Part shown: in pieces, positions 394-51,422 of the stretch
Layout of the letters: the number at the start of each line of letters is the position of its first letter
Position numbering within the stretch: position 1 is the stretch's first letter
NCBI GenBank assembly: GCA_025451235.1
Contig: JANWKT010000020.1
Coordinates: forward strand, 48,032 to 112,031
Origin: Flavobacteriales bacterium
GTDB lineage: Bacteria > Bacteroidota > Bacteroidia > CAIKAF01
Reading direction: 5' to 3'
Length of the DNA: 64,000 nt
Program-made: the position numbers and the translations under genes
The notes under the pieces: generated by a model
The model's database searches: none
Told to the model about the DNA's origin: nothing
What the model saw: the letters and a program-made list of their open reading frames with translations, nothing else

Positions 394-804
394 TCAATCA
401 TTTTTGATAATCATGACCACCAAACCAATTGGTATGGTTCCATCTATGCGATAGCGCTTATTTCCGCTTGGATATTCCAGAATATATTCTCCACTTATTC
501 GGTACAATCGTTGACCACTGGGGTATTCTGCTATATATTCACCATCTATATGAAACAATATATTCCCAGAAGGGTATTGATGAAAGTAGGTCCCATTTAC
601 TTCACCTACTCGATTCCCAGATGGATATTCTGTTATGTATTTCCCATCCATATGTAAGATCCGATTTCCGGAAGGATATTCAGATAAATAGGCCCCATCA
701 TATTGATAGAGTTTGTTGCCGGATGGATATTCCAGGATATAGGACTGAGCTGTAACAACCCCAATCGATATGAGCACAATAATGAAGAGTACAGTTTTTT
801 TCAT
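394..804 (-). CDS. Small secreted protein built from six tandem ~17-aa repeats (EYPSGNxxxxxDGxYI)
   Basis: N-terminal signal peptide (MKKTVLFIIVLISIGVVTAQ) followed by six copies of an EYPSGN…DG.Y repeat visible in the translation. Loosely MORN_2/YwqK-like in periodicity. Confidence 0.6.
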   Translation of the reverse strand: MKKTVLFIIVLISIGVVTAQSYILEYPSGNKLYQYDGAYLSEYPSGNRILHMDGKYITEYPSGNRVGEVNGTYFHQYPSGNILFHIDGEYIAEYPSGQRLYRISGEYILEYPSGNKRYRIDGTIPIGLVVMIIKND

Positions 805-872
805 AGGTTAGTTAAAACAAAAACCAGACCACAAATTTCTTTGTGATCTGGTTTTTGTTTTAGATAGCCCGG

Positions 873-21625: not shown

Positions 21626-21776
21626 TTTATTTTTTGTCAATACCGTTTGTCATCTCGACCTGGATCGGGGAGAATGGCTTGCAGGGAGTGGAGAGATCTC
21701 AAATTTAACGATGAGATTTCTCCACTCGCCGCAGGCAGATCACCCATGGCTGGGTCGAAATGACAAAAAATAAAAG
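21626..21776. repeat. ~150 bp nested inverted-repeat element (outer arms ~22 bp, inner 16-bp stem)
   Basis: Outer arm tttattttttgtca…tctcgacc pairs with ggtcgaaatgacaaaaaataaa (21753-21774), with a 13-nt bulge in the left arm. The inner stem ggagtggagagatctca/tgagatttctccactc has one mismatch around a 10-nt loop. Confidence 0.5.
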
Positions 21777-29326: not shown

Positions 29327-29518
29327 ATGATTCAATCCATGCTAGAATACTCAAAGTTCATTCTTCAAAAAGTTAGCTTCGATGAACTTCTGTTTAAAAA
29401 AGAATTAGAAAAGGCATTAAAAATATTATTACCCGAAGAAATCAAGCAATTAATTAATTGGGCAAAAGAGCAGTTTTACGGTATGCCCGTATATGAGTAC
29501 ATTCCTGCCCAAAATTAA
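29327..29518 (+). CDS. Small hypothetical helical protein (63 aa)
   Basis: ORF only. Its stop abuts the convergent mpl stop. Confidence 0.3.
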   Translation: MIQSMLEYSKFILQKVSFDELLFKKELEKALKILLPEEIKQLINWAKEQFYGMPVYEYIPAQN

Positions 29519-30886
29519 CTAGCCTTCTATTTTTTTTCTAAGCAGATCAAAAACATTTACTGAATTCCAGTTCCCTGAACTCATCATTAGAAATACAGAT
29601 GAGGTGGAATCGACATTTAATAGGTATTTTTCTAATTCCTCATTTTGGTTAAATACATTCAATTGTGAATTGTCAAAAGCACTCGATATTTCATCGGGGT
29701 CAATAGATGGTAGTTTTTTTAATTCCAATGTATGTTGACTATAAAATACCACCCCCTCATCTGCTTCATCCATTGTATTTTTGTATTGCTCCAAAAAGTT
29801 TTTATTCAAGCTACTGTAGGTATGCAATTCTACAAAAGCATATAACCTCTTTTCCGGATATTGAAGTCTTACAGCATGTATGGTAGCTTTTAACTTCGAG
29901 GGAGAATGGGCAAAATCTTTATAAATGATACTTTCCTTGGTCCTGAATACCAATTCAAGTCTTTTCGCTGCACCGGTAAATGTTTCCATGCAGGCGTAGA
30001 AGTCCTCTTCTCCAATACCAGCAGCCTTACAGGCTAACCTGGCAGCCTCCAAATTCATGAGGTTATGTTCCCCGAATATCCGTAAATGATATTTTTTTCC
30101 ATTCGAGTGAATATAGGTCTCTTCATCGATAATCTCGTAGGCGGGTACCTTATAGGCAATCATTTCTATATCCTTTCTGGTATTCTTTTTCACCAGTTCA
30201 GCCAATATTTGATCATCCACACAATAGATCAATTGTCCGCCGGGCTCGATCATATGTATGAACTGTGCAAACTGATCACAATAGTTTTCAAAAGTGGGGA
30301 ACACATTCATATGGTCCCAAGCTATCCCACTAATAATAGCTATATGCGGATGGTATATATGGAACTTGGGAACGGGATTCAAAATAGAAGATAAATATTC
30401 ATCCCCTTCAAAAACTGCCAGCTCTGATGAGGGATCCACTTTTACCATGGTATCAAAACCCTCTAGTTGGGCCCCCACCAAATAATCAAACTGCTTTTTC
30501 TGCAGACGGAATACATGCATGATCATAGAGGTGATGGTGGTTTTTCCATGGCTTCCTCCCACCACGATTCTTTTTTTATGAAGGGATTGCTGATATATAA
30601 ATTCAGGGTAGGAATAAACAGGGATGCCTAATGCCAGCGCCTTTAATAATTCAGGGTTGTCTTTATGCGCATGCATTCCCAGGATAATTGCACCAATATC
30701 GCTTGTTATTTTTTCCGGGAACCAGCCCATTTGAGGGGGTAAAATCCCGGCTTTTTCCAATCTTGTTCGGGAGGGTTCGAAAATTTCGTCATCAGAACCT
30801 GTTACCTCATGTCCATGCAAGCTAATATCCAAAGCCAGGTTATGCATGACCGATCCGCCGATAGCTATAAAATGGAATTTCATCAA
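29519..30886 (-). CDS. mpl: Mur ligase family protein, Mpl-like (UDP-N-acetylmuramate:L-Ala-gamma-D-Glu-meso-DAP ligase)
   Basis: The N-terminus HFIAIGGSVMHNLALDISLHGHEVTGSD…LEKAGI and the P-loop GGSHGKTT track E. coli Mpl more closely than MurC. Confidence 0.7.
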   Translation of the reverse strand: MMKFHFIAIGGSVMHNLALDISLHGHEVTGSDDEIFEPSRTRLEKAGILPPQMGWFPEKITSDIGAIILGMHAHKDNPELLKALALGIPVYSYPEFIYQQSLHKKRIVVGGSHGKTTITSMIMHVFRLQKKQFDYLVGAQLEGFDTMVKVDPSSELAVFEGDEYLSSILNPVPKFHIYHPHIAIISGIAWDHMNVFPTFENYCDQFAQFIHMIEPGGQLIYCVDDQILAELVKKNTRKDIEMIAYKVPAYEIIDEETYIHSNGKKYHLRIFGEHNLMNLEAARLACKAAGIGEEDFYACMETFTGAAKRLELVFRTKESIIYKDFAHSPSKLKATIHAVRLQYPEKRLYAFVELHTYSSLNKNFLEQYKNTMDEADEGVVFYSQHTLELKKLPSIDPDEISSAFDNSQLNVFNQNEELEKYLLNVDSTSSVFLMMSSGNWNSVNVFDLLRKKIEG

Positions 30887-31183
30887 GAATAATTTCGAAA
30901 TAAAGATATATCCGGAACCTTATCTTCAAATCGAAAATGGAAATACTTATTAACCTGCAAATGATAAAAAAACTTAACGCGATGTTGGAGCCTGTAGCAA
31001 AACCATCTGCAGAATGATTTGTTTATAAGGCGTTTACCCAACCGGGCAGCGGCTTACACAGAGGATAGGAAAAGTTTAACAAAAAGAAAGCTTGGAGAAA
31101 AACTAAAATAAATCGTACCTTTGAATATACAAAAAATTAGATAATGTCGTTTTAAAGATAGTTTTTTTCATAGTAGGTTGGTT

Positions 31184-31220
31184 AACCAAGAGGGAGGCGA
31201 AAGCTTCCCTTTTGGTTTTT
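31184..31220 (+). terminator. Orphan intrinsic terminator: 15-bp perfect stem with a GAAA tetraloop followed by a T-tract
   Basis: aaccaagagggaggc-GAAA-gcttcccttttggtt then ttt. There is no + strand gene for ~1.7 kb upstream. Confidence 0.5.
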
Positions 31221-31365
31221 ATAGGCTTCTCTAAAACCTGTAAATTTCTTCGTTGTATTTCAACCTCAAATGCTCATTTACCTATGTAAACTCCGCTTTT
31301 CGGTTTCATACGCCTCGAAATTCTTTGTTTTTAGAGAAGCCTACTTTAAAGTAAGCTAGTCGATG

Positions 31366-31827
31366 TTATTTGTATTCTTCAATCTCCGGATCTGGAGCCT
31401 GGTCGTACGAATTGCCTTTGGGTCTTAGTTTTTCTTTAAATACTACATTCAGCTCATGCCGGTTTCCTCTTAATTTCGCCACGATGGTTTCTGAGATCCC
31501 ATTCACAATAGAATAATCTTCTTTTATATCGAAGGTTACTTTTTCGTATTTACCATCCACAATCCTGATCTCAATCGATCTCAATGTACCTTTTTTAACA
31601 CTTACCTTTCCATAATAGCAGTTTCCATGTACACCTTGTCTTAAGCTCACCACCACATTATCATAATCACCGTCTTCCACCTCATCTGCTCCCCGTATTT
31701 GAAATATTTTATACCATTTTCGATAGCAGCTTTCATCTTCTTTTTTATCCGCATCAGCAGACTGGGCAAATACACCCAAGGAAGAAGGAATCAGTAACAG
31801 GCTTAAAAACATCCATTTTTTAATCAT
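31366..31827 (-). CDS. Hypothetical secreted protein
   Basis: Signal peptide. No family recognised. Confidence 0.5.
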   Translation of the reverse strand: MIKKWMFLSLLLIPSSLGVFAQSADADKKEDESCYRKWYKIFQIRGADEVEDGDYDNVVVSLRQGVHGNCYYGKVSVKKGTLRSIEIRIVDGKYEKVTFDIKEDYSIVNGISETIVAKLRGNRHELNVVFKEKLRPKGNSYDQAPDPEIEEYK

Positions 31828-50719: not shown

Positions 50720-51422
50720 TATAAAAATCTTTCGAAATAGTTTTATACCAATCACTCCTGCTTTTATCGGAATGATATAAATATTGAGTTTCTTCCACCA
50801 GTTTTTGTTCTTTCATCGAAAAGATCCCCAATTCCCTGATGATCTCACCCTGTTTGTGACTCGAAAGGTGACAAACCTGGTTCAAATAAATATTCCTGGT
50901 GTTTAAAATTTTTACCACTCGTGCAAATTCAGTGGTTGGCAGGATGATCCCTAACTTCCCCTCGCTTGATAAATGCACTGGAAGAAAGTCAGCCAAAGTC
51001 TCTGCATTAAAATGGGTTGAATGCCGGGCCAATGATTTTCTTTCATCCAGGTTTTTAAGACTATTAGTAAAATAAGGAGGATTGGTGATAACAAGATCGA
51101 ATTTTTCTGTTGGGTGATGGACACTCCAGTTCATCAGATCATCATTAACTAATATGAGTTCTTCCTTCCATCTACTTAGCGTAAAATTATTAGCACAATC
51201 CTCGGCGGATGCCTGGTCGATTTCAATGGCAACTACCTTCCCAGGTTCAAACCGCTGAGCCAGTATTAAGCTCAAAATGCCAGTTCCAGCCCCCAGGTCC
51301 AATACCTTTTTATAACTCTTGCCCGGCAACCAGCAACCCAGTACTACCGAGTCAGTACCTAGCTTAAATGCGGCTTTCCCCTGGTATAGGGTAAATTGTT
51401 TGAACTCAAATGGAGCTGACAT
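50712..51422 (-). CDS. tRNA1(Val) (adenine37-N6)-methyltransferase (YfiC/TrmN6-like)
   Basis: FEFKQFTLYQGKAAFKLGTDSVVLGCW matches the YfiC N-terminus. NPPY (DLVITNPPYF) N6-adenine methyltransferase motif. Confidence 0.8.
   Translation of the reverse strand: MSAPFEFKQFTLYQGKAAFKLGTDSVVLGCWLPGKSYKKVLDLGAGTGILSLILAQRFEPGKVVAIEIDQASAEDCANNFTLSRWKEELILVNDDLMNWSVHHPTEKFDLVITNPPYFTNSLKNLDERKSLARHSTHFNAETLADFLPVHLSSEGKLGIILPTTEFARVVKILNTRNIYLNQVCHLSSHKQGEIIRELGIFSMKEQKLVEETQYLYHSDKSRSDWYKTISKDFYIK

Follow-up and report, generated by a model that had tools for sequence, protein, structure and literature searches.

A 64,000-nt stretch of DNA from a Flavobacteriales bacterium, which we call the window throughout, carries in its largest ORF-free gap what appears to be a well-supported and previously uncatalogued sRNA gene. 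We consider it likely that the gap is best explained by a trans-acting, FopS-like sRNA gene together with a separate palindrome. By sequence comparison the gene would be of a familiar kind in an understudied, uncultured Bacteroidota lineage, and its mode of action is plausibly that of FopS. The proposed gene, on the + strand, would be independently transcribed and act in trans. In its RNA, a 24-nt stretch that is unstructured and absolutely conserved would lead into an intrinsic terminator. With that stretch, which is antisense to a start region of the form AACCAACCUAC-U-AUG-AAA-AAA-ACU, the RNA may pair across the start codon of mRNAs for exported and envelope proteins and so block 30S binding, like FopS and GibS in Bacteroides thetaiotaomicron.

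The intergenic gap and its neighbours

Two minus-strand genes enclose the gap (30887-31365). It is bounded on one side by the start of mpl, a Mpl-type Mur ligase gene (29519-30886), and on the other by the stop of a gene for a 153-aa protein without a Pfam family (31366-31827), which is convergent to the sRNA. The first-pass annotation had singled out this gap as the largest non-coding one of the window, and we agree: the rival larger interval, 599 bp at 50720-51318, is actually a 236-aa minus-strand gene. Every feature that had been named in the gap was found where the annotation had placed it. It had also noted that the nearest upstream + strand gene is distant, and the nearest such ORF that is also called as a gene in relatives does end ~1.7 kb away, at 29518. 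This ORF (29327-29518, 63 aa) lies just downstream of mpl, and five relatives (L082, L083, L093, L094 and L095) have a called gene of 63-64 aa, without a Pfam hit, in the equivalent place.

A 38-nt minus-strand block at 30940-30977, which precedes the mpl start codon by ~80 nt, is 79-89% identical to its counterparts in L001-L003, while the remaining spacer has diverged. From its position and conservation it is probably the mpl promoter. Read on the minus strand, the block is TTAAGTTTTTTTATCATTTGCAGGTTAATAAGTATTT; it loosely resembles the sRNA head (AGTTTTTTT..CAT..AGGTT..TTAA) and was reported by neither nhmmer nor our model R1. The block overlaps the start of an 18-codon ORF (30961-31017) that the first-pass annotation had included in a small RNA or mobile unit. 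The ORF exists, but its peptide is not conserved in relatives and it starts inside the probable promoter block, so we do not count it as part of any such unit. On a larger scale, the sRNA locus of several relatives has dnaA 3-5 kb away (L082 5568-6998, L083 5339-6769, L092 6342-7772), and the window therefore probably spans the chromosomal origin region.

A strand-specific, covarying terminator hairpin

The most prominent structure in the gap is a hairpin of 15 pairs with a GAAA loop at 31184-31217 on the + strand, followed by a U-tract (31218-31222) that would form the 3' end of the RNA. The stem had been described as perfect. Its length, loop and U-tract are as described, while the pairing is not perfect, since 13 pairs are Watson-Crick and two are G-U. 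The hairpin has a folding energy of -25.2 kcal/mol (z = -4.3), and none of 200 shuffled sequences folded as well. A terminator scan flagged the same hairpin. Because the G-U pairs turn into C-A mismatches on the opposite strand, the structure is specific to the + strand, with -24.7 kcal/mol there against -16.1 kcal/mol on the minus strand.

A GC-containing stem-loop followed by a U-tract on the transcribed strand, as in an intrinsic (Rho-independent) terminator, is conserved in all homologues, and every one of them has TTTT(T)AT after the stem. The stem itself occurs in six sequence versions. In a model-based alignment of the homologues, 11 of the 13 stem pairs show compensatory changes, and 96.5% of stem cells are paired, compared with 46-74% when the partner column is slid as a control. 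Covariation at the observed level was reached by none of 500 shuffles. The element lies between the start of mpl and the stop of the convergent 153-aa gene, leaving no co-directional gene for the hairpin to terminate. The first-pass proposal of an independent transcript end belonging to an unannotated small RNA is strongly backed by synteny, by the covarying terminator, and by the invariant stretch and promoter box described below.

An invariant 24-nt stretch in two genomic contexts

Immediately before the hairpin lies the stretch AGUUUUUUUCAUAGUAGGUUGGUU (31160-31183, + strand), the putative seed, which is unpaired in the minimum-energy fold. We fetched relatives in two ways, via the Mpl protein and via the 153-aa protein. 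AGTTTTTTTCATAGTAGGTTGGTT, with the hairpin and TTTTAT immediately after it, is present in fifteen loci of related metagenome genomes, among which there are 13 distinct sequences. The 24-nt stretch is identical in 14 of the 15 loci, the remaining one (L085) having one extra U. MAGs with a Flavobacteriales label are the closest relatives, and their Mpl is ~70% identical; Mpl identity across L001-L004 is just 54-71%, and the 153-aa protein of the related loci is 59-84% identical. The intergenic DNA around the element is otherwise unalignable among relatives. Conservation across related genomes had been named beforehand as a check, and the sRNA element shows it in these 15 loci. One of the relatives, L003 (CAZUXM010000018.1), and the protein P0017 are publicly labelled Candidatus Competibacteraceae, a gammaproteobacterial family, yet are Bacteroidota-like; they are probably mis-binned or mislabelled, since they agree in gene content and synteny with the MAGs that bear the Flavobacteriales label.

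In the clade of the window the element sits between mpl and the 153-aa gene. More distant relatives have it in a second context, 45-60 nt downstream of clpB and on the same strand (L004 1009-1071, L085 11788-11854, L089 8757-8819 and L092 11269-11333, with L090 grouped with L089). That the element occurs in two genomic contexts indicates that the RNA, rather than its neighbours, is the conserved unit. No intervening terminator between clpB and the sRNA is evident in the 45-60 nt spacer sequences. The clpB-linked position suggests a 3'-UTR-derived form or co-transcription with this heat-shock gene, and the location behind clpB suggests co-expression with stress genes.

The element occurs once per locus in the 288 kb searched, and no further copies of the 27-nt sRNA head were found in the window. 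The 23-nt seed was absent from viral contigs, BLAST against plasmids and phages returned chance matches only, and no tRNA or tmRNA was found.

Candidate promoter and length of the RNA

Upstream of the stretch, a candidate -7 promoter box, TACCTTTG (31116-31123, + strand), matches TAnnTTTG, which is generally known as the sigma-A consensus of Bacteroidota. The match is perfect in all eight aligned sequences of the window clade, while the DNA around it varies. The same motif has been reported as the Bacteroidota -7 consensus (PMC11697453), and by this resemblance we infer a promoter function for the box. A31129 and C31130 are invariant and lie 6-7 nt after it. A start at ~31129 would give an RNA of ~93 nt in the window clade, with a putative 5' leader at 31129-31159 (+ strand). 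This 30-nt leader contains the clade-conserved CGTTTTAAAGAT; its sequence varies otherwise and has no consistent fold. If transcription instead started near 31158-31161, the RNA would be ~62 nt long.

Among the clpB-linked loci, L004 has a perfect TAAGTTTG box 9 nt before the invariant stretch, which predicts a short form of ~67 nt. The other clpB-linked loci have weak boxes only, and in them processing of the clpB 3' UTR may give rise to the RNA. A 3'-UTR-derived member, FopS-14, is known in B. thetaiotaomicron (PMC11697453).

Could the conserved element be something other than an sRNA gene? Taken as a mere bidirectional terminator, the hairpin would serve the 153-aa gene in the window clade and clpB elsewhere, and the 24-mer would be a DNA-level site such as an operator or an origin-linked element near dnaA. 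This is hard to reconcile with the window clade, where no co-directional gene lies upstream and yet the G-U pairs and the U-tract are kept on the + strand only. In most relatives, moreover, the 153-aa gene has a separate minus-strand terminator; in L001 and L094 just ~14 nt separate its stop codon from the hairpin, and one hairpin may act on both strands there. In L085, L089 and L092 no other hairpin comes between the clpB stop codon and this one, and the distance of 3-5 kb to dnaA in several loci would fit an origin-linked site; against these stand the invariant TAnnTTTG directed into the element, a 24-mer in which we read no DnaA box, and a distance from 24-mer to terminator fixed at 0 nt, in fixed orientation, across two unrelated contexts. 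We therefore regard this explanation as very unlikely.

The conserved CAT could also be taken for the start codon of a minus-strand frame for a small protein (MKKTIFKT...), with coding as the reason for its conservation. A frame ATG-AAA-AAA-ACT does open on the minus strand in every locus, but these frames close within 8 to 23 codons and extend into the sRNA promoter or the clpB 3' end, and the peptides are unrelated past ~8 residues. The conservation also runs the wrong way, upstream of the minus-strand ATG, and we give this possibility almost no credence. A cis-leader or riboswitch was rejected, as no gene lies downstream on the + strand. In dCas12f guide RNAs, which are linked to rpoE-dcas12f, the scaffold is on the 5' side and the guide on the 3' side (PMC13472631). 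The window RNA has neither that arrangement nor that linkage, and we rejected a dCas12f/sigma-E guide RNA as a candidate. The preferred interpretation remains an sRNA gene.

Predicted targets and proposed mechanism

CUAUGAAAAAAACU, to which the invariant stretch is antisense, is a Met-Lys-Lys start; the full complement of the stretch is AACCAACCUACUAUGAAAAAAACU. Met-Lys-Lys is the usual opening of signal peptides. To our knowledge, Bacteroidota mRNAs lack Shine-Dalgarno sequences. Because the complement comprises a start codon and two Lys codons, and because of this lack, we propose that the RNA would mask the start regions of exported-protein mRNAs.

The best predicted target site in the window (791-816, minus strand) falls where translation of gene 394-804 starts. 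This gene encodes a 136-aa exported protein beginning MKKTVLFIIVLISIGVVTAQ. Its mRNA, AACUAACCUAUGAAAAAAACU, is predicted to form 22 bp with the invariant stretch, with a 2-nt bulge and a duplex energy of -21.8 to -22.7 kcal/mol, the best among 58 starts in the window and among 218 starts of the lineage. No homologues of this protein were found. Further top predictions are also signal-peptide proteins, namely a vWA/YfbK protein and a CHU_C protein of the type IX secretion system. At or below -18 kcal/mol, the seed pairs with 2 of the 218 start regions and with none of the internal windows, and with shuffled seeds the number averages 0.48 and reaches 4 at most, so this enrichment is statistically weak. 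The adjacent 153-aa gene was not supported as a conserved target, as it is not targeted consistently.

The region around the best site deserves a separate comment. Our model R1 scores 793-859 weakly on the + strand (25.6 bits). We considered a second sRNA paralogue there and rejected it, since the hairpin has a G-U pair on the minus strand that becomes a C-A mismatch on the plus strand, as in a minus-strand terminator. From its sequence the region is better read as a target-like site, with the hairpin as the terminator of the upstream minus-strand gene. A strong terminator hairpin at 806-869 is separated by just 13 nt from the downstream start codon of gene 394-804, and this gene would need read-through from an upstream type IX secretion-tail gene (873-2318).

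A separate palindrome beyond the terminator

Downstream of the U-tract, the first-pass annotation had reported a 13-bp inverted repeat, which is exact: GGCTTCTCTAAAA at 31224-31236 has its reverse complement at 31329-31341, and two matches were found where 0.15 would be expected by chance. With the flanking TA the repeat reaches 15 bp. The pair forms the base of an imperfect palindrome of 122 nt (31222-31343, minus strand), in which 86 of 126 aligned positions are self-complementary and which is not part of the sRNA. It folds better as minus-strand RNA (-43.6 kcal/mol, against -31.8 on the + strand), and the z of the inner 92 nt is -5.1 for minus-strand RNA, against -1.65 for the + strand.

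The 122-nt palindrome is missing from every sRNA-carrying relative. At the same position, L003, L082, L083, L093 and L095 have short unrelated hairpins with minus-strand T-runs, which are the terminators of the 153-aa gene, and L001, L002 and L094 have no hairpin. Neither another copy of the palindrome nor a solo end was found in the 64-kb window or in 94 loci, where short matches fell inside coding sequence. A scan of JGI metagenomes for the exact pair returned a single contig, eukaryote-like and with an unrelated interior. Grouping the repeat pair with the small RNA in one unit, as originally proposed, is therefore not supported: the pair is absent from the relatives and has no second copy in the window, the 94 loci or the JGI scan. 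The search for further copies, named in advance as the test for a MITE, found none in the DNA examined.

A MITE might still have inserted by itself, at a TA just after the sRNA terminator, with the 13-15 bp ends as its terminal inverted repeats. The ends are indeed perfect over 15 bp, TA stands at both, the preceding GGTTTTTATA(G) is common to relatives, and the palindrome is present here and missing at the equivalent position in all of them. However, this spacer is hypervariable, with a different hairpin in almost every relative, so that presence or absence is not evidence of mobility and no relative offers a clean empty site, and the TA belongs to the palindrome and is not a demonstrable target-site duplication. 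Dispersed copies, as a MITE would have, are lacking in the window, the 94 loci and the JGI metagenome scan, and the self-complementary interior, with its marked folding advantage on the minus strand, suggests that selection acts on the RNA. We consider an insertion unlikely. The palindrome resembles MITEs and REP/BIME-type palindromes in being long and imperfect, with perfect 15-bp ends and a position between convergent genes; it differs from them in having no extra copies, no demonstrable target-site duplication and no known related transposase end.

Most likely, the palindrome is a genome-specific 3'-UTR RNA hairpin of the convergent 153-aa gene, separate from the sRNA. The gap then holds two unrelated features, an sRNA gene and an ordinary-looking palindrome, which should not be merged. 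The window contains a second, unrelated palindrome of ~150 nt at 21626-21774 (arms 21646-21701 and 21712-21767), between a TonB_C gene and the next + strand gene. It has an outer 14-nt perfect repeat (TTTATTTTTTGTCA / TGACAAAAAATAAA) and folds with -70.9 kcal/mol on the + strand and -64.6 kcal/mol on the minus strand.

Discussion

Post-transcriptional control in Bacteroidota is known almost wholly from B. thetaiotaomicron. Here, genomes with proteins that differ by 30-45%, from an environmental lineage with the label Flavobacteriales, share a frozen 24-nt stretch. The candidate offers a clean test case for the question of whether start-codon-masking sRNAs are a phylum-wide throttle on the secretome, and its position next to clpB leads to a concrete hypothesis about the inducing signal.

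How close is the window RNA to the known family? FopS RNAs are B. thetaiotaomicron sRNAs of 65-70 nt that block the translation of susC-like mRNAs, with a 5' seed over the start codon; they have canonical promoters, are antagonised by the RRM protein RbpB, and include intergenic, antisense and 3'-UTR-derived members (PMC11697453). Conservation of FopS/GibS has been reported solely within Bacteroidaceae (PMC11697453). An Rfam scan of the whole window at the gathering threshold, a check proposed in the first-pass annotation, returned no hit. In a permissive scan of the gap, the sole suggestive match was to FopS (RF04319), at 31161-31221 on the + strand with 29.1 bits (E = 0.036, 851-nt scan), well below the gathering score of 56 that sets the threshold for membership. 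Unrelated hairpin families reach similar sub-threshold scores in a control scan (mir-994, 29.6 bits), so membership cannot be argued from the FopS score by itself. In a scan of equal size, the control region 793-859, which combines the antisense of a gene start with a hairpin and a T-run, gave no FopS hit. The distant homologues also gave none, in a 56-kb scan with stricter filters.

The FopS model aligned end to end, with GU-UUUUUCAU-GUA and GGUUAA in common, and over model positions 1-15 the two are near-identical, so that the 24-nt stretch aligns with the FopS 5' seed. As in FopS, an unstructured 5' region with UUUUUCAU is antisense to a start codon region. The terminator covaries and TAnnTTTG is invariant, and the boxes predict RNAs of ~93 nt in the window clade and ~67 nt in L004. 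By analogy, then, the window RNA would work like FopS/GibS, with predicted targets and with membership below the curated threshold.

The likeness extends to several traits. Both are short RNAs with an unstructured 5' region and a single intrinsic terminator, and both share the 5' sequence G-U-(G/U)-UUUUUCAU-(G/A)-GUA and a GGUUAA before the stem. In both, the seed is antisense to the start codon and the Lys codons of mRNAs for exported proteins, a promoter box of the canonical TAnnTTTG kind is present, a candidate one for the window RNA, and members are found both in intergenic and in 3'-UTR positions. There are also clear differences. The window RNA occurs in MAGs labelled Flavobacteriales and FopS in Bacteroidaceae; the former has apparently one copy per locus (288 kb), whereas FopS has 12-15 paralogues per genome. 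The seed of the window RNA extends with AGUAGGUUGGUU where FopS has AUUAGAUUUAAGG, and the RNA of the window clade possibly has a 30-nt leader. The proteins predicted as targets are exported and include no SusC-like one, and the DNA examined contains no RRM or RbpB-like gene.

The shared seed could reflect convergence on the AUGAAAAA start instead of common descent. We consider it possible, though less likely than not, that the window RNA is genuinely homologous to the GibS/FopS R1 seed family and has diverged deeply from it. If so, an 'anti-start-codon' sRNA repressing the synthesis of exported proteins would be older than the split between Bacteroidales and Flavobacteriales. The ancestral form would have been a single-copy, stress-linked gene in the clpB 3' UTR, with multicopy expansion only in gut Bacteroides.

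A looser parallel lies in the envelope-stress sRNAs of Proteobacteria, MicA, RybB and MicL. These consist of a 5' seed and a terminator, repress many outer-membrane and lipoprotein mRNAs, and are co-regulated with stress genes; they depend on Hfq and sigma-E. The resemblance is one of analogy only, without a sequence relationship to the window RNA, and the clpB linkage of the window RNA hints at stress co-regulation of the same kind.
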